Shown: piece by piece, positions 1-52,009 of the stretch | How the letters are laid out: each line of letters opens with the position of its first letter | How positions within the stretch are numbered: the first letter of the stretch is position 1 | Assembly (NCBI GenBank): GCA_028287975.1 | Contig: JAQBOP010000011.1 | Span: forward strand, 649 to 64,648 | DNA: 64,000 nucleotides | Reading direction: 5' to 3' | Source: Mucilaginibacter sp. | GTDB taxonomy: Bacteria > Bacteroidota > Bacteroidia > Sphingobacteriales > Sphingobacteriaceae | Notes under the pieces: model-generated | Database searches by the model: none | Seen by the model: only the letters and a program-made list of their open reading frames with translations | What the model was told of the DNA's origin: nothing | Made by a program: the position numbers and the translations under genes

Positions 1-848
1 GTTTCATTAAGGTGCCCAAAATCATAATAGTAATTTGCATTTCCGGTAAAGCCGGGTAAATTGTAATGACTTATAAAAGGGATGTTATTCTTTTTAGCAA
101 GGCTATCAGGGATATCCAGTATATGGTTTTTTTCGACCGCGTAAAAAGGCGAAAACAAGAAGATCAACTGAATGTGTTTTTCTTTACATTTATCAATAAA
201 CGCCTGTAGGTAATGCACTTTTGCCGTATCGATTGGGAATGGAAATCTTTCTGGTGTGATCTTGAAGGTGGTATCTAATTTGCCATATAAGGGCTTAAAA
301 CCTTTATCTGCAGCAAATGAGCGTGCGCTTATATTGCCGGCAACCAGGTTTGCAAATTGGCTGTTGTAGCGATATAGCTCAGAAAGCTCGCTTTTATAAT
401 ATAAACCTGCCACTTTTAACATTTCATCACAACCCGGGCTTACATTAATATAAGGTGTAAGGCTACCCACGGTAGCCGTTTGCGAGAAAGGAGTTGCCAG
501 GTAATCTACCGGGTGAACTTCCAGGCAAATAGTTTTAGGCGTATATCTTGCCAGGATATTGCACAAAAACCCGTACTGAAAATAAATATTGCGCATCCCC
601 CATAAACCAGCGTTATACACACCAGTTTTTAGCGTATCCTGAATTACAGATGGCACATAGTGGTGATGGCATCTCGAGCTTCCCATAAAAACTACGGGAT
701 CATTCATCCTGTATGTTACCGCGTTTAATTTATATTCGTCTGTAGTAGTGGTGGTTTTAAATAACGCTTTCACCACAACAGAAAAAGCACGGTCGGCAAC
801 CAGCGTGATAATGATAATGATTAGAACCCTCGTTAAAAACTTTTTCAT
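1..848 (-). CDS. SGNH-like membrane-anchored acyltransferase (DltD/AlgJ-like), runs off left edge
   Basis: Not in ORF track (no stop in window). ATG at 848 reads MKKFLTRVLIIIIITLVADRAFS (TM anchor), then VFMGSSR (block I Ser), YNAG, and YYYDFGHLN (DxxH). Starts 5 nt after the MBOAT stop. Confidence 0.8.
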   Translation of the reverse strand, partial: MKKFLTRVLIIIIITLVADRAFSVVVKALFKTTTTTDEYKLNAVTYRMNDPVVFMGSSRCHHHYVPSVIQDTLKTGVYNAGLWGMRNIYFQYGFLCNILARYTPKTICLEVHPVDYLATPFSQTATVGSLTPYINVSPGCDEMLKVAGLYYKSELSELYRYNSQFANLVAGNISARSFAADKGFKPLYGKLDTTFKITPERFPFPIDTAKVHYLQAFIDKCKEKHIQLIFLFSPFYAVEKNHILDIPDSLAKKNNIPFISHYNLPGFTGNANYYYDFGHLNE

Positions 849-853
849 CCCGG

Positions 854-2308
854 TTAAAATTTAAAATAGATGAACTGATTTCCGTCAAGCACGCCGAAAA
901 ATAGAATTAATACAATATATCCGGCCACCGTTAACTCAAAACGGTAACGGTTGATAATACCGGTGGAAAACGCATGCCTATCCGGCCAGTACTCGTCCCA
1001 GAAATCTTTACAAAACATAATGACCATACAAAGCAGGCCGTTTATTAATGTCTTATAATCAACAAATAAGCCGCCCCACTCGGTAGCTATTTTCTTCATC
1101 ACCATCCCGGCTTCGGCAAGGCTAGTTGATCTGAATAATATCAATCCAAATGAAACCAAAAGGAAGGTCCAGATCATTTTTAAAACGACATTAAATGGCG
1201 GTAAGCCGCTCTTGGTCTTTTTTACTTTGTTCTTCTTGAAAAACGCGCCCGACAACATCAGCGGAACGTATAATAAACCGTGATACAAACCAAATAAGGC
1301 AAAGGTCCATGCCGCGCCATGCCACATACCTATCAATATAAAGGTGATGATGATGGCAAATATCGAGCCCCATTTTTCCATGTTCCTGAAACTAACGTTC
1401 AGGGGCATAAACACGTAATCTGTTAACCAGCCTGTGAGCGAAATATGCCATTTGCGCCAATATTCTGCAATATTTTGCGAAAAAAACGGACGTTTAAAGT
1501 TTTCGGTGATTTTGATGCCAAGCAGGTAGCCAACGCCTATGGCCATTTCAGAATAGCCCGCAAAATCAGCATACATCTGGATAGGATAAAGCAATGTGGC
1601 AAAACCCAGGGAAACACCGTTGTGATGTATGGCATTGCCAAAAACAGCATCGCCGTAAATAGATAACCTGTCGGCAACACACATTTTCATAAACATGCCC
1701 CAAAAGATCCGCTTTAAGCCAATCGATGCCAGATCGTAATCGAACGTGCGACCTTTCGACAGCTGTCCAAGGAAAGGTTTAGGTCGGTCAATAGGCCCGG
1801 AAAGGATAGTCGGGAAGAACGCGATATAAGTAGCAAAATCTACAAAACTGCGGCATGGCTCCATGTTTTCACGGTGCACCTCAATTACGTAGCTTATCAG
1901 CTTAAATGTGAAGAAACTGATACCGATAGGCATCAAAATACTAAACAGGCTCCAATGGGTTTGCAGGCCTATCGCGTTAAAAAAGTCGCTGAATGACTGG
2001 ATAAAAAAGTTAAGGTATTTAAAATACAACAGCAGCCCTAAGCCGGCAACTACGCCCAACGTGGTAAACAGCGAAGCTTTTTTTTTATTGTTTTCGTTGT
2101 TGTTGCCTATGGCTATGCCTAAACCGTAAAAAACAACCGTGGCTGTAAGCAGCAACGGGATCATTTTCCACTCGGCAAAGCCGTAAAAGAAATAACTGGC
2201 TAAAAGCAGCCAAACATTTTGCGCTTTGGCTTCACCGCTTAAAAGGAAATAGTATACAACAAAAACTACTAAGAAAAATATTAAAAAGTTGATAGAGTTT
2301 ACGACCAT
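854..2308 (-). CDS. MBOAT family O-acyltransferase (AlgI/DltB-like)
   Basis: Multi-TM; PIGISFFTFKLISY, FFPTILSGPIDR, YADFAGYS, ENFKRPF, YWRKWHISL, catalytic GMWHG; C-terminal FIYFKF. Confidence 0.93.
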   Translation of the reverse strand: MVVNSINFLIFFLVVFVVYYFLLSGEAKAQNVWLLLASYFFYGFAEWKMIPLLLTATVVFYGLGIAIGNNNENNKKKASLFTTLGVVAGLGLLLYFKYLNFFIQSFSDFFNAIGLQTHWSLFSILMPIGISFFTFKLISYVIEVHRENMEPCRSFVDFATYIAFFPTILSGPIDRPKPFLGQLSKGRTFDYDLASIGLKRIFWGMFMKMCVADRLSIYGDAVFGNAIHHNGVSLGFATLLYPIQMYADFAGYSEMAIGVGYLLGIKITENFKRPFFSQNIAEYWRKWHISLTGWLTDYVFMPLNVSFRNMEKWGSIFAIIITFILIGMWHGAAWTFALFGLYHGLLYVPLMLSGAFFKKNKVKKTKSGLPPFNVVLKMIWTFLLVSFGLILFRSTSLAEAGMVMKKIATEWGGLFVDYKTLINGLLCMVIMFCKDFWDEYWPDRHAFSTGIINRYRFELTVAGYIVLILFFGVLDGNQFIYFKF

Positions 2309-2310
2309 TA

Positions 2311-2718
2311 TTAATCTTTGTTTACCAGTTCTATAAAACCGACTTCCTTTTTATAAAGATAACAAATCAGCTTGTTATCCAAAGCGATAGCTTCTACAGG
2401 ACGAAAAAGTGGGATATACCCTTGTACGTCAACCAGCTCATCAACTGTTGCGTTTATGTCGTCAACTTCGTAACATACGTGATAAGGCGCTACGCCGTTT
2501 TTCTTTAAGATTTTATTTACCGACGATTGCTCATCAATAGGCTCGATAAGCTCTACCCGCGGCATGCCGTCTTTTGTTAAAAAGCAGATCTTTACGCGCT
2601 GGATCTCGTCGTCAATTGTTGGGGTAGCCTGGTAACCTGCCTGCACATACGGGGCAGATGTATTGGCTATACTATCAGTTACATAGCCAATGTGATGAAA
2701 TCTGAAAGTACTGAGCAC
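2311..2718 (-). CDS. VOC family protein, methylmalonyl-CoA epimerase-like
   Basis: FHHIG...VELIEP...YHVCYEVDDI...IELV metal-ligand pattern; GTG start overlaps the ACP stop by 1 nt. Confidence 0.85.
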   Translation of the reverse strand: MLSTFRFHHIGYVTDSIANTSAPYVQAGYQATPTIDDEIQRVKICFLTKDGMPRVELIEPIDEQSSVNKILKKNGVAPYHVCYEVDDINATVDELVDVQGYIPLFRPVEAIALDNKLICYLYKKEVGFIELVNKD

Positions 2719-2957
2719 TATAATTTACTTGATATAGATCCGATCATTTCTGAAACATTGCTCCATGAAAGGATCTCCTTTGATGTAAACTTTATTTTGA
2801 ACGCTTTTTCAATAGCTACAATTAACTGGATATGTGACAGTGAATCCCAATCTTCTACATCATCAGCACTGGTTTGCGGGGTTAATACAATATCGTCGTT
2901 ATCCAATACGTCACGAAAAATATCCTGTACTTTAGCTAAAATTTCAGTTTGTTCCAT
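2718..2957 (-). CDS. Acyl carrier protein
   Basis: 79 aa, acidic, WDSLSHI phosphopantetheine-attachment motif. Confidence 0.92.
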   Translation of the reverse strand: MEQTEILAKVQDIFRDVLDNDDIVLTPQTSADDVEDWDSLSHIQLIVAIEKAFKIKFTSKEILSWSNVSEMIGSISSKL

Positions 2958-2971
2958 TATTAATTGTTTTT

Positions 2972-4696
2972 TTATTTGTTTTCGATATAAAATTCTCTGT
3001 CTTCATGGGCGCCTATTTCCAGCTCAAACCGCAACGGTTCTGAACCTTCAATAGTACTGAACCCAAGTTTAGGGAAGTGGTCGGCTACCATGTTGTTTTT
3101 TGCTGTCGGCAAGTATTCGCCTATAATGCGTTGAAAGCCATGCTCTTTCGCGTAGTTAACAATGGTGCTCAGCGTGAAATCTTCCATCCCGCGTTTTAAC
3201 ACCCTGCAGCTCATAAACCAGGTATCAACAAAAAGCGTTGACGCGTCAAGTTTCTTTAAAATGATCACGCAGATCAATCCATGGTCGCCAAATTTATCAG
3301 CAAGCGTAAACGAAAAGTTTACGTATTGCTCATCACTTTCTAATGCTTCAATTTCTGCTTCAGTGTAACGTACTGTACGCAGGTTAAATTGGTTACTACG
3401 CTGTGATAGCTGTGCCACACGCACGGTGTTGAAAGAATCAAAACCTTTTACTTCTGATACCATGTTCAATGATTTCAGGAAATCAGCTTCGTTGGTAAAG
3501 CTCTGCATTAAAGAAACGCGCTTGCTTTCTACCTGGTACTGTGCGGTACGTTCTGCATCAGCATTAGAGTATGAAGCGGTTTCAAAAAGATTTAATGAAT
3601 AAAGATATTCCAGGTATTCACCCGGATCTTCCGGCAACTCAGGCACGGTAACTTCGGGTACGTTTTCTCTTACTATGTTACGCTCGAAAGGGTTATCATC
3701 CAGGAACACCATCGAGTCGAACCCAATATTTAAGATGCTTTGTATAAAGCGGATATTATCGGCTTTGTTGTTCCAGTTGGCTACAAAAACGGCAATGTCT
3801 TCTATTTTCAAAACCATCTCGGGGTTCTTTTCAAACGGAGCCCTTGCTTTGTCTTCGTCGTTCTTGCTGCAAACAGCTATGATGATACCGCGATTCTTCA
3901 GGTTTTTAACCCATTGCTGGAACTCTGTAAAAGCTTTACCTATGCCCAGTCCGTGACCTACCTGGATATTCTCCCAACCATCATCGCCCACAATGCCGCC
4001 CCAAGTGGTATTGTCCAGATCAAGGATCAGGCATTTCTTGAATTTACCTTCAAGCGCGCAAATAATGTCCAGCGTGCGAGATGCCACATAAGGCAAAATG
4101 TCAAGGCTCAGCACCATTTCTGTACTGATATAAATATGGCTGTTGAATGTGATGTTACGGCCGAATTTATTTTGCAAACCGGCTATATCGCAGATAAAGA
4201 AGTTTGCATTTTCCTGCGCAACCTTCATCAATTCATAATTAAGCTTGCGCAACTGGAAAGTAAATGACGACTGAACCTTAGTAGCGTAACTCCCAAAAAC
4301 GGTATCTTCTATTTCAGGATAGTTATAATAAATAATACGTCCCTTAACGGTATTACACATCATCCGCACAAAATCCAGGCGCTCATCTGCCAAACCTATT
4401 TGGTCTAAGGGCGATGTGTGACTATACTTTTCTAACAGTTTGTGGGTTGATTGAAAAACGATGGTATAATCGGCACCAAATTCATGCAGATCTGATGTTG
4501 GGTCCATTACCTGGCGCTCAACCTGGTTAAACTCAGCCTCAAATAAGTCGATATTATATTTTCGCTCATAGCCCATCCCTTTAAGAGAAACTGCTAAAAA
4601 CTGGGTAGCCACATCGCCTAAAAGAGCTACCTTCCGGGTTGGAAGTGATGAATGCTCTTTTTTTAAATTTTGTTTAAGTTCTTTAAAAGATATCAT
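2972..4696 (-). CDS. fkbH: FkbH-like HAD-IIIC glyceryl transferase/phosphatase
   Basis: LILDLDNTTWGG (HAD motif I), CSKN, FLDDNPFER, RSNQFNLRT, MSCRVLKRGME. The ATG at 4696 (MISFKELK) is a more likely start than 4747. Confidence 0.9.
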   Translation of the reverse strand: MISFKELKQNLKKEHSSLPTRKVALLGDVATQFLAVSLKGMGYERKYNIDLFEAEFNQVERQVMDPTSDLHEFGADYTIVFQSTHKLLEKYSHTSPLDQIGLADERLDFVRMMCNTVKGRIIYYNYPEIEDTVFGSYATKVQSSFTFQLRKLNYELMKVAQENANFFICDIAGLQNKFGRNITFNSHIYISTEMVLSLDILPYVASRTLDIICALEGKFKKCLILDLDNTTWGGIVGDDGWENIQVGHGLGIGKAFTEFQQWVKNLKNRGIIIAVCSKNDEDKARAPFEKNPEMVLKIEDIAVFVANWNNKADNIRFIQSILNIGFDSMVFLDDNPFERNIVRENVPEVTVPELPEDPGEYLEYLYSLNLFETASYSNADAERTAQYQVESKRVSLMQSFTNEADFLKSLNMVSEVKGFDSFNTVRVAQLSQRSNQFNLRTVRYTEAEIEALESDEQYVNFSFTLADKFGDHGLICVIILKKLDASTLFVDTWFMSCRVLKRGMEDFTLSTIVNYAKEHGFQRIIGEYLPTAKNNMVADHFPKLGFSTIEGSEPLRFELEIGAHEDREFYIENK

Positions 4697-4833
4697 ATCA
4701 TTTGTTGATGCGGTACAAAAGTGTAGCATAAACAGCTTAACTTTCAAATTTACAGCACGTAAACGTAATAAATTTTTGCGAAAATAGCCATTTTTTCTCT
4801 ACAGAATAAGGAATATAATAGCCTAATAGTTAA

Positions 4834-5055
4834 TTAAGAATAAGTTAACCTTGCGCAAGCTCCGGAACGAATTATCAGGCCAAATGTATCACTGCATATA
4901 ACGCGGCTGATGAAAATAGCGATCCATAATATTATCCCCTGCAGTAAAGGTCTGAATCCGACAGCTGCCAGCACCGTCCTTGATAACCCGGCACCGATCA
5001 GGAAGAGGGTCAAGGTTAATCCGGCTTTAGCTATCGTTTGATCTTTATTGATCAT
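4834..5055 (-). pseudogene. C-terminal remnant of a YeiH-family (putative sulfate exporter) membrane protein
   Basis: AKAGLTLTLFLIGAGLS...VGFRPLLQGIILW matches the last TM helices of YeiH; the upstream bulk of the gene is absent. Confidence 0.6.
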
Positions 5056-9906: not shown

Positions 9907-12357
9907 CTATTTCTTAAATCTTAAAATGGTGTATGAATTAGCCGGAAAACTGTATTCAAAAGTTTTGCCGGTAAGTGGCATCGTAGTTTCTTTCGTGGCA
10001 ATGCGCTCCGGGCTTTGCGGCATGTTTTCGGCTTTCGGATCACCGGACAAAGTAGCGATCTTTACAGGAGAATTACTTGTAAATCCTCCCAGATCAACCG
10101 ATGTTTTAGTTGCTGTTGATTTTGTATTTACGATGTGTAGTACCAACTCATCCCCATTTTCGCTGCGGGTGGCGGTTACATCAAGGTCGCCTTCTACGCT
10201 GTCAAATATGCGCAACGGTTCGTGGTTCTTAGCAGCCATTTGGGTGGCGTAAAACGGCGGCATACCCCATACCTGCGATGGGGTATAAAAGATCTGCCCC
10301 TGGTCCCAGTCGTTATCATTCTGGCCCAAAGCCTGCAAGCCATTCGCCGCGCACGAGGTCAGCACGAAATCGCCATGACGGCGAACGGCATTCATGGTAG
10401 TGGCATGACCCAAAGCGCGCTGCATGTTATGCAGGCCGCCGTTCTCTTCAAAAATGGTGATCTTAAGTTTGGTATTTGGGTCCCATTTTAAAAACATATC
10501 ACGCATGTACTGCAAGTTTTTGTCGACTATTTTACCGGCGTTGGCTTCATCATCATCGATATGCAGGTCCCAGTAATCGGCTTTGCCATTAACTGCCCTG
10601 AATACCATTTCCATATTTTCTACAGATTTTGGTCGCCACCATGCCGCGCAGATCACTTTTATATCCGGATTTTTAGCATGTATCGCATCATATAACATGT
10701 TAAAACGCTCGGCATATTGTTTGTAATCATTTGTCAGGTCATCCCAGATCACCTCTTCATTACCTAACTCAATATAATGTAATTTATAAGGTGCGGGGTG
10801 TCCGTTTGTTGCACGCTTTTTACCCCAGGTAGTGGTGGCACTGCCGGTAAGGTATTCAACCATATTGCTAACATCTTCAGGCGTTTCTTCAACGTTTATG
10901 GCAAATGCCGGCTCAAAGCCCGCGGCGTTGCAATAAGCAACAAACTCTTCAATGCCGAACCCATTGCTGGTGTACGGGTGCCAATGTCCTTCGTACGGTG
11001 GCCGTTTGTCGGCACTGCCGATCATGTTTTTCCATTTGTAGTCGGGCGCGTTCACCATGGTGCCGCCATAACGTACAAAGTTTAATCCTTCCTGCTGCAT
11101 TTTGGTAGCAATATCCGCACGGATAGGCAGGCCTTTAAACTGATCTTTCCCGGTGCTCATCAGTACGGCCTGGTCCATTTCTAATTTGCCCTTTTTCTCA
11201 ATATAAATAGCAAAACGTGCTTTAGTATCCGTCGCATTTGCGGTAAGTGTGAAAGAAAATTTGGTCCACTTTTCAGGTATGCCGTTAGACCTAATGAAGG
11301 CATAAGTTTTGCTGCCATCTGCACTTTGTAATGCCACAGTAACCGGCAGATCGATCTGGCTTGTCTTCAGAAATACATAACCCTGTAGTTTTTGCCCCTT
11401 CCTTAAGGAGATGCCCCAGCGGCCAAGTCCGCTGTTAGCTACACCCAATTTGCCCGTGCCGCTTGTATATTCTAATACCTGCGACTGTTTACCGTTGTAA
11501 GCACCAGCATCATTTAGCAGAAATTTACCCTTAACAGAGGTAGCTTTAATTGCATCCCACATACCGCTTACAGCCGGCATTTCTTTGCCTATAAATTCGT
11601 TTTTGATGACTGTATTGTTTTGTTTGATCACCACATCCTTAAACTTCACATCCGCATGAAAAGTGCGCAGACCTATCTTTCCGGCTAATAAGGGCTTGCT
11701 CTCGTCCGTATAATCAATTGTGGGTGTAGTGCTGTTATCGAGGTAGATCAAGATTTGAGCACCTTTAACCTCAACCTTTAAATGCAGCCAGGCATCTTTA
11801 TCAAAAGTTGCTTTAGCTTCTTTCAGCAGTTTAAAATTATGGACATGTTTGCCTAAAACCAATGTTTGCCGACCGGGGGCTATACTTATTTCGTAGCCAT
11901 CAAAATCATCCATTCCTTCCTGCTCGTTATTTACGCGGACAATAAATCCGGCGTTTTGAGCATCCTTGCTAAATTTCAAGTCGGCTTCTATGCTGCCATC
12001 TTTTACTGCCGGATTTTCCCGGATTAATTTATAGCCCGGACCCGGGTTTACAGATACGGCCCCATCGGCAACTTTCCAATTGCCTTGCAGGGTTTTCCAG
12101 CCTATTACCTTGTCAGCCGGTGCCGGCTCTTCAAAGCTCTCGCCATATAAACGCTGGTCATACAGTCCGCCATAGATCTCGTGGTTCACATCCTCAATAC
12201 ATGAGCCGTACATTTTTGCAGGGATCTTATTTATCACCCGCGATGCATCAACAACGATATGCGCGTTTTGAGCTAATGCGGTTAACGAAAAAAAAGTAAT
12301 TGAACAGGCAATGGCCCATCTTTTTGCGGCCTGGTTTGAGTTATTGAATCCGATCAT
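9907..12357 (-). CDS. GH51-like alpha-L-arabinofuranosidase with inserted DUF1080/LamG-like beta-sandwich
   Basis: Signal peptide, EDVNHEIYGGLY, RYGG, FGIEEF, ELGNEE (acid/base), IFEEN, C-terminal FPANSYTILR. Confidence 0.8.
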   Translation of the reverse strand: MIGFNNSNQAAKRWAIACSITFFSLTALAQNAHIVVDASRVINKIPAKMYGSCIEDVNHEIYGGLYDQRLYGESFEEPAPADKVIGWKTLQGNWKVADGAVSVNPGPGYKLIRENPAVKDGSIEADLKFSKDAQNAGFIVRVNNEQEGMDDFDGYEISIAPGRQTLVLGKHVHNFKLLKEAKATFDKDAWLHLKVEVKGAQILIYLDNSTTPTIDYTDESKPLLAGKIGLRTFHADVKFKDVVIKQNNTVIKNEFIGKEMPAVSGMWDAIKATSVKGKFLLNDAGAYNGKQSQVLEYTSGTGKLGVANSGLGRWGISLRKGQKLQGYVFLKTSQIDLPVTVALQSADGSKTYAFIRSNGIPEKWTKFSFTLTANATDTKARFAIYIEKKGKLEMDQAVLMSTGKDQFKGLPIRADIATKMQQEGLNFVRYGGTMVNAPDYKWKNMIGSADKRPPYEGHWHPYTSNGFGIEEFVAYCNAAGFEPAFAINVEETPEDVSNMVEYLTGSATTTWGKKRATNGHPAPYKLHYIELGNEEVIWDDLTNDYKQYAERFNMLYDAIHAKNPDIKVICAAWWRPKSVENMEMVFRAVNGKADYWDLHIDDDEANAGKIVDKNLQYMRDMFLKWDPNTKLKITIFEENGGLHNMQRALGHATTMNAVRRHGDFVLTSCAANGLQALGQNDNDWDQGQIFYTPSQVWGMPPFYATQMAAKNHEPLRIFDSVEGDLDVTATRSENGDELVLHIVNTKSTATKTSVDLGGFTSNSPVKIATLSGDPKAENMPQSPERIATKETTMPLTGKTFEYSFPANSYTILRFKK

Positions 12358-12627
12358 AAATTGGTTACCCGTAAGGGGGTTAGTTTAATTTTTGCAAAAA
12401 TCAGGTATTCCAACAGGTACTGGTTGAACGCAATTGATATTTTTTAATTCAAATTTGACTAATGTAGCATTATTTGCCTTCCTAAGTTATCAAACCCGTG
12501 CAAGAAACGGCCAAAATTGTTCAAAAAGCAGTTATATTTAAATTGGATATTGCACGTTGATAAATTGGGTACAAATCACCTGTATCCGGGTATCAGTATA
12601 TTAAATTTTAACTAACCAGTTATACAA

Positions 12628-14682
12628 ATGATATTTTTTAAAAGGCAATACATCGCCGTTTTATGTCCATTAGTTCTTTTTGTTTTTCAAGCCTCGGCCC
12701 AATCTGTCGCGCCGCCACATCCCATTCATCCGCTTGAATTGCAGGATGTGCGGGTTAACGATTCTTTTTGGAGCCCTAAGCTAAAAGTATGGAACACCGT
12801 TACCATATACGATGTATTTGACAAACTGGAAGGAAAGTATGTGCCAGATCGCCCGGATATCATTGCCGAAAAGGAGAAGTTGGGCAAGACACGTAACGCG
12901 TTTTTAAACTTCGACCTGGTGGCACAAGGCAAAAAGAATATCAACACACATGACGGGCCGCCCTGGTACGACGGGTTAGTTTATGAAACTATAAGAGGCG
13001 CGGCCGATCTGCTTGCCGAATACCCCGACCCAAAACTTGAGAAAAAGATCGACGCTTATATTGACCGGATAGCAGCCGCGCAGGCTGTCGACCCTGATGG
13101 TTATATTAATACCTACACTACACTGACCAGGCCCAAAAACCAACGCTGGGGCATGAATGGAGGCGATGATAAATGGCAGCATGATGTTTACAATGCCGGC
13201 ATGTTGATAGACGCTGCTGTTCATTATTACAAGGCGACGGGTAAAACCAAGCTATTGGCAGTAGCTGTAAAATTCAGCAATTACATTTATACCGTTATGG
13301 GGCCAACGCCTAAGAGCAATGTTATACCCGGCCACGGCGGCCCCGAGGAAGCCATGTTGCGCATGTACCAGCTGTTTAAAGAGCACCCTGAACTTAAAAC
13401 TAAAATAGATGTGCCTGTGCATAACGACGAATATTTTGCCATGACAAAATACTGGATAGAGCAAAGAGGTAATTACGGAGAGAAAGATGGCAGTCATGCC
13501 CGCAAGAGCGATGATTCTTATAACCAGGACCACATGCCGGTATTACAGCAAAAAACTATTGAAGGCCACGCCGTAAGGGCAACCTTGCTGGCAACAGGTG
13601 TTACGGCAACCGCTTTAGAGACAAACGATCAGCAATACATTCAAACCGCGAACAACTATTGGAATAACATGGTTGGCAAACGCATGTTCATTACCGGCGG
13701 CGAAGGCGCTATAGCTGATGGTGAGCGTTTTGGCGCGGATTACTTTTTACCTGAATCAGCTTATTTGGAAACCTGCGCTTCTATAGGCTCGGCATTCTTT
13801 AGCGAGCAGATGAACGAGCTGGAAGCCGATGGTAAATACATAGACGAGTTTGAAAGGGTGGTTTATAATAATTTACTGTCGGGCGTATCGCTTAGCGGCG
13901 ATCATTATTTTTATGAGAACCCGCTTATTGCTACAGATCATAAACGCTGGGCCTGGCATGATTGCCCTTGCTGCCCGCCAATGATCTTGAAAATGGTGGC
14001 CGCTCTGCCGCAATATATTTATGGTTATGATGATAAATCATTGTACGTAAACCTTTTTATAGGCAGCGAAGCGGATCTGAAATTGAATGGATCAGGTATT
14101 ATGCTGAAACAAACCACAGGTTATCCATGGAAGGGTGATACGAGGATCGAGGTAAATCCTAAGAAACCGCAAACATTTGCCGTTAACATCCGGATACCGG
14201 GTTGGGCTGAAGGTAAGGAGAACCCGTTTGATCTTTATCGCTCAAAAACAAGCGGAGCTGTAATATTAAAAGTGAACGGCAAAGTCGTTCCTGTTGAAAC
14301 CGTTAAAGGATACGTGTCTGTTAAGCGTCAATGGAAAAAAGGCGATGTGATTGAACTTACCTTACCTATCGAGCCAAGATTGGTAGCCGTTAACGACGCA
14401 GTGCAAACCATTAAAGGTAAGCTGGCCATTGCATCAGGGCCGATAGTTTATGGGTTTGAAGCCATTGACAATCCGGATCTTAAAAACTACAGCATTAAAG
14501 ATAATGATGCCATGACGCTTGAATACCAATCTAACCTGTTAAACGGCGTAAATGTAATTACTGGCCAGGCAACCAATAGCTCGGGCGCAAGCGTGAAATT
14601 TACTGCTATACCATTTTATGCGTTGGGTAACCGGGTATCAGGCGCGCCTTACCAGGTTTGGATGCCCGAAAAAGCCAACTGA
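12628..14682 (+). CDS. GH127 beta-L-arabinofuranosidase
   Basis: EGHAVRA, GERFG, YLETCAS, YFYENPL, CPCCPP (Zn/Cys nucleophile), RIPGW, IPFYA. Confidence 0.9.
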   Translation: MIFFKRQYIAVLCPLVLFVFQASAQSVAPPHPIHPLELQDVRVNDSFWSPKLKVWNTVTIYDVFDKLEGKYVPDRPDIIAEKEKLGKTRNAFLNFDLVAQGKKNINTHDGPPWYDGLVYETIRGAADLLAEYPDPKLEKKIDAYIDRIAAAQAVDPDGYINTYTTLTRPKNQRWGMNGGDDKWQHDVYNAGMLIDAAVHYYKATGKTKLLAVAVKFSNYIYTVMGPTPKSNVIPGHGGPEEAMLRMYQLFKEHPELKTKIDVPVHNDEYFAMTKYWIEQRGNYGEKDGSHARKSDDSYNQDHMPVLQQKTIEGHAVRATLLATGVTATALETNDQQYIQTANNYWNNMVGKRMFITGGEGAIADGERFGADYFLPESAYLETCASIGSAFFSEQMNELEADGKYIDEFERVVYNNLLSGVSLSGDHYFYENPLIATDHKRWAWHDCPCCPPMILKMVAALPQYIYGYDDKSLYVNLFIGSEADLKLNGSGIMLKQTTGYPWKGDTRIEVNPKKPQTFAVNIRIPGWAEGKENPFDLYRSKTSGAVILKVNGKVVPVETVKGYVSVKRQWKKGDVIELTLPIEPRLVAVNDAVQTIKGKLAIASGPIVYGFEAIDNPDLKNYSIKDNDAMTLEYQSNLLNGVNVITGQATNSSGASVKFTAIPFYALGNRVSGAPYQVWMPEKAN

Positions 14683-14755
14683 TATAAATAGCTCGAACTT
14701 TCAAATTAATTAGTAGTTTTAATTCTCACAAACACGAGCTGTTAAGCACTGCGTT

Positions 14756-15619
14756 ATGAGGATTTTTCGTGAGAATATTGTAAGCCCTGAAAACCTTTTT
14801 GTTGTAAAGGAAGAACGTTTTAAATATAACGACTTCCCGTTTCATGCCCATGCCGAGTACGAGATCATTTTGATTTTGGAAGGCACGGGCCAGCGGATAG
14901 TAGGCGACAGTATTACCGAATTTTCGACTGTGGACCTTTGCATGTTCGGCGCTAACCTGCCCCATACATTTTACACCCGGGGGCTCAGCAAAAACGAAGC
15001 GATAAAACAGGTAGTTATCCAGTTTAATGAGAGTTTTTTAGGTGTTGGTTTTTTTGACAGGAAACCGTTTAAAGCCATTAAAGACTTGCTGCAGCGCTCA
15101 TCGCAAGGCATTGTATTCAACGAAGAAACCAAAGCTGCTTTAACACAAAAAATAACCGCGCTGGTAAATAAAAACGCCACAGAAACGGTTATAGAGCTGC
15201 TTAATATTTTGCACCTGCTATCGCAATCTACTGATTACTCGTTATTGTCAAGCCCCGGATTTTTGCATGACCTGAACTTTGAAGAATCCTCAAGGATGAG
15301 CAAGGTTTATGACTATATCCTTGAAAACTTTAAAAGGGACCTTTCGCTTGATGAGGTAGCGTCGGTGGCTTATTTATCGCCGTCGGCATTTTGCCGGTAC
15401 TTTAAAAAGTTTACCCGCAAAACCCTGTCAGAATTTTTGATAGACCTGCGGATAGGTTATGCCTGCAAGCTGTTGCAAAATAACAATATGGGCATCTCGC
15501 AGATCAGCCTGGACTCTGGCTTTAATAATGTATCCTATTTTAACCGGAAATTCAAAGCCGTAAAAGGTGAAACCCCGATGGAGTACCAAAAACACTTCAT
15601 GATAAAAAGGGCTAATTAA
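14756..15619 (+). CDS. AraC family regulator (cupin + HTH)
   Basis: FHAHAEYE, GANLPH, FCRYFKK, SGFNNVSYFNRKFK. Confidence 0.92.
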   Translation: MRIFRENIVSPENLFVVKEERFKYNDFPFHAHAEYEIILILEGTGQRIVGDSITEFSTVDLCMFGANLPHTFYTRGLSKNEAIKQVVIQFNESFLGVGFFDRKPFKAIKDLLQRSSQGIVFNEETKAALTQKITALVNKNATETVIELLNILHLLSQSTDYSLLSSPGFLHDLNFEESSRMSKVYDYILENFKRDLSLDEVASVAYLSPSAFCRYFKKFTRKTLSEFLIDLRIGYACKLLQNNNMGISQISLDSGFNNVSYFNRKFKAVKGETPMEYQKHFMIKRAN

Positions 15620-15623
15620 CCTG

Positions 15624-16355
15624 CTATTTATCTTCCAGCCTTTTTATGATGTATGGAGCAATGATCTGCTTTGAACCCTCAACGCCGGGATGGATACCGT
15701 CAGGCACAGCTTTCATATAAGCGTCCTTGCCTTTGTCAAGCAATTCTTTCCAGTGCGGGTAATGGTCGATCAATAAAAGTTTTCGGGCTCTGGCAACCTC
15801 ACGGTACATCTGGTAATAGGCTAAAATATTGGGGCGCGTTTGCCCATGTTCATTTAAAGGGATATTCATGGTCTGCAATATCACTTCGCAATCAGGATTA
15901 TAAAGTTTGATCCGGTCGATCATGTAATTTAAGTTGAGCCTGGCTACGTCGACATTGGTTTTGTAATCTGAAAACGCGTCATTCATGGCAAACTCAATCA
16001 ACACAGCATCGGGTGCTTTTTTGATCACGCTATCCTCCAGATGCTGCACACCCCAGGTAGACCACATCCCGCTTTTGGCAGCGTTTAATGTGGTTAGCAG
16101 CCCATTATATTTCCTATTTAAGGCCTTGTTAACAGAATCAACCCAGGCACGGCCACCTTCGGCTGCGGTGAGGCTTGTACCATAAGTTACCAATGTTTGA
16201 TGCTTACCTGTGGCCAGGTTTTTAATCAATTTTGATTGCGCAAAAGATGCATTAAAGGCTAAGAAGGCACAAGCAAAAAGCGCGGTTTTAAAAAGATAGT
16301 TTCTCACAAGCGTATAATTAATGGTTATTACAAATATGAAAAACCTTTTGATCAA
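15624..16355 (-). CDS. SGNH/GDSL hydrolase (esterase)
   Basis: YGTSLT, KSG, EFAMND, DGIHP; start position uncertain. Confidence 0.85.
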   Translation of the reverse strand: MIKRFFIFVITINYTLVRNYLFKTALFACAFLAFNASFAQSKLIKNLATGKHQTLVTYGTSLTAAEGGRAWVDSVNKALNRKYNGLLTTLNAAKSGMWSTWGVQHLEDSVIKKAPDAVLIEFAMNDAFSDYKTNVDVARLNLNYMIDRIKLYNPDCEVILQTMNIPLNEHGQTRPNILAYYQMYREVARARKLLLIDHYPHWKELLDKGKDAYMKAVPDGIHPGVEGSKQIIAPYIIKRLEDK

Positions 16356-16356
16356 T

Positions 16357-17685
16357 TTAAGCTACAACAGGTACATAAACAGTGTATCCGCGCGGCGGCG
16401 CCCAAAAATCGGCCCAGCCGTAAACATTGGTTTGCTTGCTTTCGGGCATGGCGGTATCTGTGTTGCTCCACCATGCAACAGGCGAAAGTTTTTGGTTTTT
16501 CCATTGCGTTTTAACCCAGGTACCATTCCAACTGGTACCGTTATTTAAAACGTAGATAAGCCCCGGCTGTTCGCCCCATCCGCCACGCTGAATGATGTAC
16601 AAATTATCGTCAGCATGCAAAATAGTAGTATTGCCGGCTGCATACTTTTCATGGGCCTTTATCAGCGCGGTTATCCCGTTAGGTGTTCCTTCAAGCGCCA
16701 GGTTCCAGTTAAAATAATCCTGCCAGAAAACACAGGGATAACCCTCATGTGTCAGGATATAAGAATACGCCAGCATTTTATCATTGATTATCGCGTCGCC
16801 CCGCACAACATCGTGGTTCTCGACAAAAGTAACCGCCGTGCCTGCAAAGCCGTCAGTTAATAACGTGCCGCGTTCTGTCAAAGTTTTTAAGCTGAAGTTA
16901 GGGTCCATGCATAGATCTTTTAACCTGTAACGCAGCGGGAAATCAAATGCGTTGATAGGGTTATCGTTCCAGGTATTTACTTCGGCAAGCCAGTCGTAAA
17001 TATTTCGGTCGCTATCCCAGCATTCACCCACACCAAACGGATTAAATTCGGTATCGCCCCTTAAACTCCTCATCTCTTGTATAGCCCGTACCATCCATGC
17101 ACCATAACCTTTTACAAAGTCGTATCTAAATCCATCCACGCCAACGTCTTCCAACAGCCAGCGGGCATATTCTAAAAAAGCGGTATAAACATCCGGGTTG
17201 CGGTGGCAAAGGTCGGGCATGTCACTAAACGCGCTTTCGTCCATGGTTTCATACCGGCACGGATGAAAGCATTCCCAGTTTCTTGGAAACTTACCGCTTG
17301 CCGGGTTAAACTTGGTTTTGCGCAAAACATTATCCATCTGGTTCATTTCAAGCTCGCCGCCATCATTATGGTTTAGCACCACGTCAACGTATACATCAAT
17401 TTTATTTTGATGCGCATTTGCTATCAAAGCCTTTAACTCAACCTCGTTTCCGAACCATGTTTTTACACCGCCGTTCTGGTCAAAATCGCCCAGGTCGTAA
17501 TAATCAAAAGGGTTGTATCCCATAGATGTTTGCTGGGCAGCCTTGCCGATAGGGGGCAGCCATAAAGCCGTAAATCCGGCATCGCTTAAGGAGGAGGTTT
17601 TATCCTTCAGGAAATTCCACCACTCAAATTCCCGGTTTTCAGCTTTAGGACAATCCCAATAAAACGCCTGCAAAATAACACCCAT
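16357..17685 (-). CDS. Cytoplasmic alpha-amylase, GH13 (GH13_7-like)
   Basis: GVILQAFYWD, DVVLNH, DGFRYDFVKG, VGECW, FVENHD; no signal peptide. Confidence 0.88.
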   Translation of the reverse strand: MGVILQAFYWDCPKAENREFEWWNFLKDKTSSLSDAGFTALWLPPIGKAAQQTSMGYNPFDYYDLGDFDQNGGVKTWFGNEVELKALIANAHQNKIDVYVDVVLNHNDGGELEMNQMDNVLRKTKFNPASGKFPRNWECFHPCRYETMDESAFSDMPDLCHRNPDVYTAFLEYARWLLEDVGVDGFRYDFVKGYGAWMVRAIQEMRSLRGDTEFNPFGVGECWDSDRNIYDWLAEVNTWNDNPINAFDFPLRYRLKDLCMDPNFSLKTLTERGTLLTDGFAGTAVTFVENHDVVRGDAIINDKMLAYSYILTHEGYPCVFWQDYFNWNLALEGTPNGITALIKAHEKYAAGNTTILHADDNLYIIQRGGWGEQPGLIYVLNNGTSWNGTWVKTQWKNQKLSPVAWWSNTDTAMPESKQTNVYGWADFWAPPRGYTVYVPVVA

Positions 17686-17758
17686 AGGTAAAATATTTAT
17701 GTGATAATTATAGATAAAATAAACTTGTATTTACCGGTGCTAACCTATAAATTTCGTA

Positions 17759-19111
17759 ATGAATAATAACAGATTAACGGCATTAATTTACATCTGGTAT
17801 TTGATCTTCTTTTGCTCTTCAAGTTATGCGCAAGTACATGCACCAATAGCCGCTGATCTAACCATCAGAAAGAACCTATCTGACGACCAACTGCTCGACC
17901 TGGTGCAGAAACAAACCTTCAGGTATTTTTGGGATTTTGCCCACCCCACAAGCGGCATGGCGCGAGAGCGTAATACTACAACCAAAAACTTTGGCGGCAA
18001 TATAGTAACAACCAGTGGCACAGGCTTTGGTATCATGGCCACCATCGTGGCCGCCAACCGTAAGTTTATACCACGAAAAGAGGCGGCGATGCATATGCTG
18101 AAGATCATTGATTTTCTGTTAAAGGCCGATCGGTTTCACGGCGCTTATCCGCATTGGTTAAATGGCGAAACTGGTAAGGTGATCCCTTTCAGCAAGAAAG
18201 ATGACGGTGCCGATATTGTAGAAACGTCTTATTTATTCCAAGGCCTGTTAACCGCGCAGCAATATTATACTGCGAATAATCCTGTCGAAAAAGACATCCG
18301 CTCAAAAATCAAACAACTATGGGGTGGCGTGGAATGGGATTGGTTCACCCAAAACAAAAATGTGTTGTACTGGCATTGGAGCCCTGATTATAACTGGGAC
18401 ATGAATATGCCCATAAAAGGATGGAACGAATGCCTCATTACTTATATAATGGCCGCGTCTTCGCCGACTCATGCCATCAACAAAGCGGTTTATACGGAAG
18501 GATGGACGAGCGGGAATACCTTCGTCAACGGTAAAACTTATTATGGTAAATATACTTTGCCATTGGGCCCGGATTATGGCGGCCCGTTGTTCTGGAGCCA
18601 GTATTCGTTTTTAGGATTAAATCCGCACGGGTTGAAAGATCAATATGCCGATTATTGGCAGCAGGCCATCAATCATACTTTAATTAACCGTGAGTATTGC
18701 ATTGAGAACCCGCTAAAGTATAAAGGCTACGGCGCCAATTGCTGGGGCTTAACCGCAAGTGATAGCTGGCAAGGTTATTCGGGATACTCGCCCTCCAATG
18801 ATCTTGGGGTGATTGCACCTACGGCCGCCTTATCTGCATTTCCTTACGCGCCGCAATATGCCATGCAGGTTTTACGGCATTTTTATGAGGATCTGGGCGA
18901 TAAGATCTGGGGCGAGTACGGCTTTACAGACGCGTTTAGCGAGCAACATGACTGGTATGCGAAAACCTACCTCGCCATAGACCAGGGACCGATAATTGTA
19001 ATGATAGAAAATTACCGGACCGGTTTGCTTTGGAAGCTTTTTATGAGTAATCCCGACGTAAAAAACGGGCTAAATAAGCTGGGGTTTAGCGCACCGGGAT
19101 TACATCCTTAA
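17759..19111 (+). CDS. GH144 (glucoamylase-family/DUF3131) probable endo-beta-1,2-glucanase
   Basis: QTFRYFWDFAHPTSGMARER, DGADIVET, GWNECLITY, WGLTASD, YLAIDQGPI. Confidence 0.85.
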   Translation: MNNNRLTALIYIWYLIFFCSSSYAQVHAPIAADLTIRKNLSDDQLLDLVQKQTFRYFWDFAHPTSGMARERNTTTKNFGGNIVTTSGTGFGIMATIVAANRKFIPRKEAAMHMLKIIDFLLKADRFHGAYPHWLNGETGKVIPFSKKDDGADIVETSYLFQGLLTAQQYYTANNPVEKDIRSKIKQLWGGVEWDWFTQNKNVLYWHWSPDYNWDMNMPIKGWNECLITYIMAASSPTHAINKAVYTEGWTSGNTFVNGKTYYGKYTLPLGPDYGGPLFWSQYSFLGLNPHGLKDQYADYWQQAINHTLINREYCIENPLKYKGYGANCWGLTASDSWQGYSGYSPSNDLGVIAPTAALSAFPYAPQYAMQVLRHFYEDLGDKIWGEYGFTDAFSEQHDWYAKTYLAIDQGPIIVMIENYRTGLLWKLFMSNPDVKNGLNKLGFSAPGLHP

Positions 19112-19269
19112 TGCGCTCTGTAAAAAACCTGTCGCAAATAATCAGCAGCTAAAAAAGTTGTTAACTTGCCTGCTGATAATAACACTATAAACCACCTGAT
19201 TACTATATTTAGATTACCATTTACTGCGCTGATAAGGCCTTGTAAACAGCTATCACCAATTAAAACTAT

Positions 19270-51800: not shown

Positions 51801-52000
51801 CTGAAATCGGCTACACATTTGGCAGTCAGCTCCTTAATAAGGCCGGTGTGAAAAGCGCCAGGGTTTTTATTAATGGTACAAACCTTTTCTTTATTCATGA
51901 CAACTTCAAAGACATTAATCTGGACCCTGAACAAACCAATTGGGGATGGGGACTGGATCAGTTAAGAGTAATTAATTTAGGTATAAACATCACTTTATAA
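48872..52000 (+). CDS. SusC/RagA TonB-dependent transporter
   Basis: VVVVGYGTQ, PLYVIDG, LKDASAAIYGSRAANGVILVTTKRG, RYDGS, ITWE, C-terminal GINITL. Confidence 0.96.
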   Translation: MKNKPLLLKMRRITFFLLFTSFSMIGTAHADKGKDHSKSFQQSSHSTSHNAVIAPVVIKGKVIDDKGQVMPGVTVKYKETDIGTVTNANGEYSLSLPSQTGTLVFSFVGYKTIEIAVGEEKIINVTLTALSGMLNDVVVVGYGTQSKAKVSGAITTVTAKDVALSPSPNLGAGLAGRVPGVVINDRGGEPGNDGVSIFIRGVSTNGNASPLYVIDGIVRDYGDLNFIPPADVESITVLKDASAAIYGSRAANGVILVTTKRGKLGKATINATYNQAWEQPQRIPESADAYTFATMANLEQELRGLPLPYSSSDLELYKNGKDPLGHPNTNWQDLTIAKWQHQERADVNITGGTEGVKYYVGAGYLHDGTPFVDGFTYDKQYHFISNIDAQINKDLKVSLNLSGRVRNNVSSLMDWAHIFLGLPNQVGIYPNGLFGSGRSGYSALLMARDPDYGYYQQNAGNFTSTASAEYKIPGADGLTLSGNFAYDYDNNYNKTWKGVSYYYVLDPKTGIYNKMQSSNTASPNLGVNFPAGNSVTSNIKLAYNHVFSDVHAIDAFVGFEQNTTSSYNISAGRSNYASGSIAELFAGDSNTANQSNNGSSSRTGRENLFGRALYTYDNKYNVQFQFRYDGSDNFAPGKRYGFFPGISGNWILSKEDFLKDVKWVNNLKIRGSWGELGNDNVGAYQYLTSYKYGNNYPFNSTTNQGLVQANAPNPNITWEVAKTTDIGLDGSFLNGGLTATIDVFRTIRSNILAPRNASVPAYTGLSLPDENIGRIKNQGIELELSTSGHIGEFKYTVEGNFTYAKNTVLFVDETPGTPAYQRATGASLGTDVLYETNGIFKSQAQIDATPHLGGVVPGDLIYVDYNHDGVINNLDQIRQKYGPTPQIVYGTNFNFGYKNFNLILGFQGQGQAFGEKYTSYPFDPIGWGDFATAESKNVWSPANPNGTNPSPGQNFDNGTTNTNFRYASMSFLKLKTAEIGYTFGSQLLNKAGVKSARVFINGTNLFFIHDNFKDINLDPEQTNWGWGLDQLRVINLGINITL

Positions 52001-52009
52001 TCTTAGACA

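Follow-up and report, generated by a model that had tools for sequence, protein, structure and literature searches.

Gene Organization of the Locus

We examined a 64,000-nucleotide (nt) stretch of the genome of Mucilaginibacter sp. (assembly GCA_028287975.1, contig JAQBOP010000011.1, positions 649 to 64,648; hereafter the window), the left edge of which falls within a minus-strand operon on that contig (C197). The portion inside the window is a run of five genes encoding an FkbH-type loader, an acyl carrier protein (ACP), a VOC-fold protein, an MBOAT-family acyltransferase, and an SGNH-type protein. The first-pass annotation of this DNA had described five co-oriented genes separated by gaps of 14, -1, 2, and 5 nt and had proposed that they transfer glyceryl groups to a surface polymer; the gaps agree with the open reading frame (ORF) listing, and Pfam and NCBIfam together confirm the first four genes. 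All five genes and their motifs are in place, but the unit actually comprises six genes, since past the window edge a further gene, encoding a SASA-family lipoprotein, overlaps gene 5 by 1 nt. The arrangement is not a matter of chance, because the identical order recurs across many genomes. The features of the locus are as follows.

fkbH, 2972..4696, minus strand: long-form HAD-IIIC/FkbH loader of 574 amino acids counted from its ATG (TIGR01686, PF21211)
ACP, 2718..2957, minus strand: dedicated acyl carrier protein of 79 amino acids, phosphopantetheine site Ser39 (PF00550)
VOC, 2311..2718, minus strand: VOC-fold metalloprotein of 135 amino acids with a GTG start, member of an FkbH-linked subfamily, candidate C2 epimerase (PF13669)
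MBOAT, 854..2308, minus strand: acyltransferase of 484 amino acids with His330 and C-terminal FIYFKF (Tyr481) (PF03062)
Gene 5, 1..848 in the window (full ORF C197:1496-588), minus strand: DltD-like SGNH protein of 302 amino acids, the last 60 nt of its gene lying beyond the edge
Gene 6, outside the left edge (C197:588-1 plus C88:1-654), minus strand: SASA-family SGNH-type lipoprotein of 421 amino acids (PF03629)
TAnnTTTG box, 4745..4752, minus strand: about 50 nt upstream of the fkbH ATG, seen in the sequence as a possible Bacteroidota -7 promoter element

An assembly break divides gene 6 over contigs C197 and C88, which are probably adjacent, because the C88 genes that follow gene 6 match those that follow it in genome G056. 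The intact copy in G056 encodes a SASA-family lipoprotein of 421 amino acids that scores 34 bits on PF03629 (cut-off 24.8). A PDB sequence search with gene 6 gave no match at E values up to 1, and the gene is a candidate second transferase or de-acylase.

The reading of the TAnnTTTG box relies on what we take to be the Bacteroidota -7 consensus; a match lies at most 160 nt upstream in five of nine related loci, at varying distances, a weak signal counted without a chance control. A TTG at position 4747 was rejected as the fkbH start because it overlaps this box and because the related proteins are 572-577 amino acids long.

The Loader and Its Carrier

Enzymes of the FkbH family load glycerate from 1,3-bisphosphoglycerate onto an ACP. 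The operon FkbH, encoded by a single-copy gene in this genome, scores 283 bits on TIGR01686 (cut-off 146.65), also matches PF21211, and carries both a DxD nucleophile motif (DLDNT at residue 226) and an SCR cysteine motif (residue 496), presumably the phosphatase Asp and the acyl-carrying Cys as in FkbH/OzmB. It is predicted to form glyceryl-S-ACP from 1,3-bisphosphoglycerate. The adjacent carrier is distinct from the genome's other ACP, on contig C131, and its W37-D38-S39-L40 motif is invariant in 46 aligned carriers; with a score of 20 bits on NF003464 (cut-off 68), it does not qualify as an ortholog of DltC. No polyketide synthase (PKS) or nonribosomal peptide synthetase (NRPS) was found in the window, as the first-pass annotation had stated, when 19 ORFs were scanned with Pfam and the remaining listed ORFs were judged by eye. 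A PKS/NRPS role for the operon FkbH was rejected.

The Membrane Acyltransferase and Its SGNH-Type Partners

The operon MBOAT exceeds the PF03062 cut-off and scores 193 bits on the DltB family TIGR04091, under the cut-off of 375; its sole PDB match is DltB (E = 4.5e-32). The residue aligned to DltB His336, His330, does not vary in 46 sequences. The protein ends in FIYFKF, so that the acyl-shuttle motif FxYxxF is fused to its C-terminus, as it is in 31 of the 31 MBOATs listed from FkbH loci.

Adjacent gene 5 encodes a protein with a long N-terminal helix and the Ser and DxxH residues of an SGNH partner (Ser58, Asp276, His279). It has no Pfam or NCBIfam match, and a single-sequence PDB search was also empty. 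Across its family of 98 sequences, G56, S58, and H279 are invariant and D276 is at least 90% conserved; the family profile has DltD as its top PDB match (E = 3.6e-5). The AlphaFold model (pLDDT 96.3) likewise has DltD as its top Foldseek match (E = 9.9e-6, TM 0.45), at the head of 45 matches at E <= 0.001 that are mainly SGNH proteins. We assign gene 5 to the SGNH proteins because DltD comes out best both by family profile and by predicted fold.

A second MBOAT, ending in FIYFQF, and an SGNH-like partner are encoded at C341:5187-7514, adjoining genes that by eye resemble those of fatty-acid or aryl-polyene-type biosynthesis. No match to an FkbH-type loader or an ACP was found on that contig.

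The VOC Protein

The third gene product matches PF13669 and reaches only 47 bits on TIGR03081, the methylmalonyl-CoA epimerase (MCE) family, against a cut-off of 115; "VOC epimerase" is thus an interpretation and not a family assignment. The possibility that it is the genome's MCE was rejected on the strength of this score and of a separate MCE-like gene on contig C145, which scores 213 on an MCE profile versus 54 for the operon protein. Housekeeping MCEs form a separate group from the FkbH-linked VOC proteins in a quick tree whose deep branches have weak support. The VOC protein of Pedobacter aquatilis is 79% identical to that of the operon.

Residues H9, D37, Q40, E56, H80, and E130 are invariant in 35 sequences, and we take H9, E56, H80, and E130 to be metal ligands. 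The predicted structure (pLDDT 95) superimposes on MCEs with TM 0.77-0.83 and on canonical glyoxalase I from maize and Listeria with TM 0.35-0.39. It has the single-subunit topology of MCE (TM about 0.8) and, aligned to the human enzyme, its H/E/H/E set of four metal-ligand residues; the fold arrangement of canonical glyoxalase I is not found. The protein differs from MCE in falling below the family cut-off, in its identity of about 25%, and in its linkage to FkbH and ACP. It is MCE-like but not an MCE.

Its closest solved homolog is the Clostridium acetobutylicum protein 3hdp/2qh0 (TM 0.89-0.90, 37% identity). Because that protein scores 131 bits on the profile of the VOC subfamily, against at most 59.5 for MCEs, the sole solved member of the subfamily bears the name under which it was deposited, glyoxalase I. 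At the position of the subfamily's invariant Gln40 it has Arg.

Conservation of the Cassette

A match to FkbH was present in 35 of the 151 related genomes examined (in the genus, 27 of 90), in 30 of 401 genomes of the phylum, and in 39 of 401 of the class of a Devosia genome. From these three draws, 98 FkbH loci were assembled (35 of 37, 23 of 30, and 40 of 42 matches), with omission of the genome's own two matches, one match at E = 1e-3, the six weakest in the phylum, that of the centre genome, and one partial match. Co-occurrence was scored by six-frame profile scanning within 6 kb, with profiles built from those same loci, 16 of which are short.

An ACP is encoded in 69 of the 98 loci, an MBOAT in 43, and FkbH, ACP, and MBOAT together in 42, so that the carrier is present in 42 of the 43 FkbH loci that have an MBOAT. 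In the set from relatives, an ORF of 290-360 amino acids adjoins the MBOAT gene in 24 of 24 loci; 17 such partners, aligned with gene 5, have the G-x-S and the His in common, and one cluster of five is only putatively SGNH. FkbH, ACP, and MBOAT occur together in shuffled orders in the Bacteroidota, Alphaproteobacteria, Acidobacteriota, and a Fibrobacterota metagenome-assembled genome (MAG). The cassette is real and widespread, recurring in several bacterial phyla.

The VOC gene behaves differently from this core. It is present in 10 of the 42 FkbH-ACP-MBOAT loci and absent from 32, and on a tree of FkbH from 88 of 89 chosen loci its presence changes at least 16 times (that of MaoC at least 9 times). 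Sister FkbH proteins exchange VOC for MaoC in the pairs L126/L108 (support 1.00) and L038/L035 (0.90). Because of this low frequency and the repeated gain and loss, the conserved core is FkbH-ACP-MBOAT-SGNH and VOC is an optional insert; obligate membership of VOC in the relay was rejected. The expectation that VOC would be conserved with fkbH and MBOAT thus failed, which refutes an obligate five-gene pathway but not an optional tailoring step.

VOC occurs in 20 and MaoC in 21 of the 98 loci, never together (Fisher p 0.006, with kin that are not independent), some of the MaoC-bearing loci being PKS-like. A short-chain dehydrogenase/reductase (SDR) gene stands beside MaoC in 20 of 21 loci and beside VOC plus MBOAT in 2 of 10. 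VOC is accompanied by a methyltransferase in 6 of the 98.

The converse search, anchored on VOC, covered 112 loci: the best 80 of 292 metagenome relatives and 32 loci from a GTDB scan. One locus may occur in both this and the FkbH-anchored set, and 2 of the 32 GTDB loci score better as MCE. FkbH lies near VOC in 69 of the 80 metagenome loci; where 4.5 kb is available on both sides (n = 28), FkbH is found in 27, ACP in 27, and MBOAT in 15. Of the 32 GTDB loci, 22 have FkbH; among the 18 long ones, FkbH is found in 15 and MBOAT in 6, so that over both sources VOC is tied to FkbH in 42 of 46 long loci. MaoC is found in 0 of the 112.

Loci that encode all four of FkbH, ACP, VOC, and MBOAT occur in Devosia, Ensifer, a Fibrobacterota MAG, and several Acidobacteriota; plasmids have them as well, namely Sinorhizobium meliloti pSymB, close to genes for capsule export, and one from the Rhodobacteraceae. 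In G056 and in 10 of the best 80 metagenome loci a SASA gene stands behind the SGNH gene, and this six-gene form is mostly found alone. Where FkbH-VOC(-ACP) has no MBOAT, its neighbors are genes for sugar aminotransferases and for transferases of the AAC(3), GNAT, or hexapeptide type.

Fused proteins were sought among longer sequences (37 matches among 7999 scored candidates) and include FkbH-VOC-ACP (P0241), GNAT-VOC (P0242), VOC-FkbH-peptidyl carrier protein (PCP)-condensation domain (P0243), condensation domain-VOC-FkbH-PCP (P0244), and MBOAT-VOC (P0246). Any single fusion may be an assembly artefact, because four of them are single-member clusters. P0243 and P0244, with VOC, FkbH, PCP, and condensation domains in one NRPS-type chain, are candidate L-glycerate-incorporating modules.

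Several other loci of the subfamily were noted. On pSymB (L069:7849-13737 and L073), the order is VOC-MBOAT-unknown gene-ACP-FkbH near the capsule-export genes; the unknown gene is annotated "TonB-dependent receptor", yet SGNH-like G-x-S and DxxH motifs can be seen in it by eye. Forty Sinorhizobium plasmid records match FkbH, the match in strain 1021 being in two pieces. A recurring block, ACP-SDR-FabH-like-VOC-FkbH-ACP, lies in glycan loci (L170, L178, L191, and similar) and may build a second or extended acyl group. A 56-kb Clostridium perfringens plasmid type (13 records) has nucleotidyltransferase-VOC-ACP-FkbH (L072:1558-5769), with no MBOAT or glycan genes in the stretch seen, and a Paroceanicella plasmid has ACP-FkbH-methyltransferase-VOC next to mprF and acvB (L217:6973-16538), which may point to a lipid acceptor. 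In L110 (G496:C1, about 146000-152000), a subfamily VOC gene shares a glycan locus with genes resembling those of asparagine synthase and NadE, which may mean a different loader; no FkbH match was found in that genome.

Glycan Context and the Acceptor

The first-pass annotation named exopolysaccharide (EPS), capsular polysaccharide (CPS), or lipopolysaccharide (LPS) as the acceptor and proposed a check for the five genes near wzx/wzy loci. Five-gene sets in other genomes do lie among glycosyltransferase and nucleotide-sugar genes (L145, L159, L163, L169, L208, L210), and VOC-less relatives from the same genus are found inside capsule- or EPS-type clusters (L046, L058-L061). The window showed no gene for a glycosyltransferase, Wzx, or Wzy, and the genome's three Wzz matches are all on other contigs. 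With no wzx/wzy locus near this copy, an EPS, CPS, or LPS acceptor is unsupported in this genome. The acceptor is probably encoded elsewhere in the genome; the cassettes of relatives are often in capsule-, EPS-, or LPS-type clusters.

The glycerate of gellan is the L form. Excerpts of one report place it at C2 of glucose, about one per repeat, with no chirality stated (PMC7009714), and excerpts of another name only an acetyltransferase for gellan (PMC4443731). Sphingomonas, sought for the gellan link, was not found among the 32 GTDB loci (narrow patterns) or in the plasmid rows and genus names shown, which is no evidence of absence.

Comparison with Known Systems

With the Dlt system (DltA, DltC, DltB, DltX, and DltD), which D-alanylates teichoic acid, the operon shares a dedicated carrier, the MBOAT catalytic His, the FxYxxF Tyr shuttle, and a membrane-anchored DltD-like SGNH protein. 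It differs in that its loader is an HAD enzyme of the FkbH type rather than an adenylation enzyme (no AMP-binding protein occurs among the six genes) and in that the shuttle motif is fused to an MBOAT below the DltB cut-off with no DltX. In addition, its host is Gram-negative, its acyl group is predicted to be a hydroxyacyl one, and its tailoring slot is optional. Membership in Dlt proper was rejected given the lack of DltA and the scores on TIGR04091 (193 of 375 bits) and NF003464 (20 of 68 bits).

AlgI/AlgJ/AlgX-type O-acetyltransferases show the same MBOAT-SGNH likeness. PatA/PatB, as described in excerpts of PMC12148441, also combines an MBOAT bearing a fused C-terminal FxYxxF with a separate SGNH transferase and a second SGNH-type gene after it. 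Both the PatA/PatB and Alg systems use acyl-CoA and no carrier, whereas the operon has an ACP and a loader. The same excerpts show that the FxYxxF Tyr is acylated and hands its group to the SGNH partner, and state that MBOAT-SGNH pathways other than Dlt have no carrier protein and an acyl-CoA donor (PMC12148441). By all features testable from sequence, the cassette belongs to the MBOAT-SGNH systems and is Dlt-like yet not Dlt.

The operon shares with FkbH/OzmB glyceryl-S-ACP systems an FkbH over the family cut-off, the Asp and Cys motifs, and an adjacent carrier. In those systems glyceryl-S-ACP serves methoxymalonyl-ACP, tetronate, and NRPS starter units, and the vioprolide starter module is said to contain FkbH. 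The suomilide and cystomanamide pathways, in excerpts of their descriptions, are examples of FkbH-type NRPS starters, and L-glyceric acid is a constituent of vioprolides according to an excerpt of PMC7383572. The operon differs in having no PKS, NRPS, FabH, or FkbI/FkbK oxidases and in having MBOAT-SGNH as its sole transferase.

A further parallel is found in Campylobacter jejuni 11168, in which the "epimerase" gene cj1301 is numbered next to the FkbH-domain gene cj1302 in the flagellin glycan region (PMC7099621, excerpt) and the flagellin carries a 2,3-di-O-methylglyceric acid substituent with both oxygens kept (PMC5378307, excerpt). The likeness consists of an FkbH gene beside an epimerase gene, by annotation only, in an organism with a glyceroyl-type sugar substituent. 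It differs in being N-acylation of a nonulosonic acid and not a membrane relay, and the excerpts do not assign genes to the substituent.

Proposed Mechanism and Alternatives

What the analysis shows is the order of the genes, the families and fold of their products, the intactness of the catalytic motifs, and the patterns of co-occurrence and fusion. The best explanation is a carrier-fed, Dlt-like relay for glyceryl O-acylation, which we consider quite probable. FkbH would charge the dedicated ACP with D-glycerate taken from 1,3-bisphosphoglycerate; the VOC protein would invert C2 to give L-glyceryl-S-ACP, perhaps through a metal-bound enediolate with Glu56 and Glu130 as acid and base; and the MBOAT, taking the ACP-bound group rather than acyl-CoA, would with the DltD-like SGNH protein move it across the inner membrane onto a cell-envelope polymer. 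By the established chemistry of these families (PMC12148441), the MBOAT His would hand the group to the FxYxxF Tyr, which would give it to the Ser of the SGNH protein for delivery to the polymer. The group delivered would be L-glyceryl. Gene 6 could be a second transferase or an esterase that takes the group off. The VOC protein would occupy an interchangeable tailoring slot: left empty, the slot would yield D-glyceryl, with MaoC plus SDR it would yield lactyl, and with a methyltransferase O-methylated forms.

The Dlt-like relay postulated by the first-pass annotation gains support from His330, the FxYxxF motif, the DltD-like SGNH protein, the presence of ACP in 42 of 43 FkbH-MBOAT loci, and glycan-gene neighbors elsewhere. 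Its VOC epimerase fares unevenly, with the MCE-type fold, fusion to FkbH and ACP, and exclusion with MaoC plus SDR indirectly in its favor and the lack of conservation with the core against it. Linkage and fusion to FkbH and ACP suggest that the VOC protein acts on the carrier-bound glyceryl unit. Epimerization fits it because no cofactor partner is needed and because of the MCE fold, and would explain why VOC and MaoC plus SDR never occur together, since dehydration destroys the C2 centre. Given the relay, we somewhat favor the VOC protein being a C2 epimerase that supplies L-glyceryl; the whole reading, a six-gene carrier-fed acylation relay in which VOC gives L-glyceryl for a cell-envelope polymer, we judge evenly balanced between right and wrong.

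Several results weigh against it. The principal one, which bears on the epimerase, is the deposition of 3hdp/2qh0 as glyoxalase I; others are the low TIGR03081 score, the lack of VOC in most core loci, and subfamily members with no FkbH nearby (L070, a Rahnella plasmid cluster, and L110, L171, L223, L225, and L226). The MBOAT-VOC fusion is a single sequence from one contig, with its MBOAT cut at the N-terminus. Besides the missing glycan-assembly genes of the window, the unit in G056 is followed by an AraC-type gene and unrelated genes, and the cassette could not be linked to any organism whose glycan carries glyceryl of assigned chirality.

Two alternatives retain the relay and reassign the VOC protein. 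It might be a glyoxalase-type or editing enzyme that clears methylglyoxal adducts or mis-loaded acyl groups, the polymer then receiving D-glyceryl. The nearest structure, deposited as an Ni(II) glyoxalase I, and the 32 of 42 core cassettes in which VOC is missing speak for this, but a housekeeping detoxifier would be unlikely to exclude MaoC plus SDR (0 of 98 and 0 of 112 loci), VOC is fused between FkbH and ACP and within NRPS modules, and its topology is MCE-like and not that of canonical glyoxalase I; we regard such a role as unlikely. Alternatively, VOC might replace MaoC as a dehydratase, eliminating the 3-hydroxyl to give enolpyruvyl/pyruvyl-S-ACP and hence a pyruvyl ester, or a lactyl one by way of a reductase encoded elsewhere. 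Loss of a C3 leaving group from a C2 enolate is possible, as in glyoxalase I chemistry; the exclusion of VOC and MaoC fits functional replacement too, and an SDR gene lies near VOC in 21 of the best 80 metagenome loci. That SDR, in the VOC-SDR loci examined, accompanies a FabH-like gene and a second ACP, and the C. jejuni product, as given in the excerpt, retains both oxygens. SDR goes with MaoC in 20 of 21 loci, as opposed to 2 of 10 FkbH-anchored and 1 of 37 VOC-anchored loci with VOC plus MBOAT, and dehydration is disfavored, being in our estimate rather improbable, because it would call for a reductase, which these loci nearly always lack.

The remaining two concern the far end of the pathway. 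The relay could be as proposed with a periplasmic or membrane molecule as acceptor (peptidoglycan, a periplasmic glucan, a glycolipid, or a glycoprotein) and gene 6 as a de-acylase, for which the PatA/PatB/Ape arrangement is a model. The unit has no glycan cluster beside it either here or in G056, and the six-gene form is kept in its 10 metagenome loci mostly without glycan genes, which agrees with such an acceptor; the close five-gene relatives L145, L163, and L159, and likewise the same-genus VOC-less relatives, lie within capsule- or EPS-type clusters, and we think it quite unlikely. The operon might instead hold two modules, the MBOAT-SGNH pair being an acetyl-CoA-fed O-acetyltransferase and FkbH-ACP-VOC feeding a soluble transferase encoded elsewhere. 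MBOAT is indeed absent from 55 of the 98 FkbH loci, where FkbH-ACP(-VOC) is found beside AAC(3)-type, GNAT, or hexapeptide transferases, and the characterized MBOATs with a fused FxYxxF tail use acyl-CoA (PMC12148441, excerpts). However, the operon encodes no other transferase, FkbH, ACP, and MBOAT stay together in shuffled orders over several phyla, and the MBOAT-SGNH pair on C341 has neither loader nor ACP match on its contig; we consider a two-module operon a long shot.

Other Features of the Window

The remaining genes of the window are mostly concerned with sugar degradation, transport, and regulation. The names of homologs suggest a Bacteroidota host close to Mucilaginibacter and Pedobacter. 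Polysaccharide-degradation genes at 9907-21447 and 53810-57109 include arabinofuranosidase-like, GH127, alpha-amylase, glucoamylase-like, and GH106 genes, and a SusC/SusD pair was seen by eye at 48872-53620. On the minus strand at about 4880-5030, a YeiH-type membrane protein gene survives only as some 50 codons of its C-terminus, broken into two pieces. A block of several kilobases is missing here, because G056 has at this point the whole gene, of 325 amino acids, together with LysR, GntR, and MFS genes.

Biological Significance

A literature search that covered few subscription papers found no description of the FkbH-ACP-VOC-MBOAT-SGNH cassette, including in excerpts of PMC6796983, PMC11298585, PMC9912281, PMC9581180, and the SugarBase preprint; a description could already stand in the 2023 Dlt acyl-shuttle paper or its supplements, in the supplements of PMC12148441, or in gellan patents. 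FkbH and MBOAT do meet in aeruginosin-type peptides, where FkbH loads an NRPS and the MBOAT separately acylates a sugar (PMC13122637, excerpt). The candidate gene for the glyceroyl group of Tannerella forsythia "remains elusive" in an excerpt of PMC6120980, and six unassigned Tanf ORFs are not mentioned in the parts searched of one supplement to that paper.

A wider reading, which we hold to be doubtful, is that the FkbH-linked VOC proteins make up a subfamily of 2-hydroxyacyl-carrier-protein epimerases so far undescribed, and that the Clostridium "glyoxalase I" is a mis-assigned member of it. FkbH-ACP-VOC would then be a general bacterial source of L-glyceroyl groups, feeding MBOAT-SGNH relays (e.g., for gellan glycerate O-esters), soluble N-acyltransferases (glyceroyl-pseudaminic acid), and NRPS starters (L-glycerate depsipeptides), with the MBOAT branch constituting a second carrier-fed route after Dlt, in which a swappable slot would decide between O-methyl, lactyl, and D- or L-glyceryl forms.

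That bacterial glycans bear glyceroyl groups is known; the genes for these groups are not. FkbH, ACP, and VOC are small soluble proteins, so the question of the glyceroyl genes could be tested in one in-vitro assay. The question also concerns gellan, a food polymer. If the relay is as proposed, a carrier-fed MBOAT outside Dlt would revise the view, stated in excerpts of PMC12148441, that the other MBOAT-SGNH systems use acyl-CoA; and if the tailoring slot is real, the acyl group of a polymer would be predictable from the genes, and could be changed.

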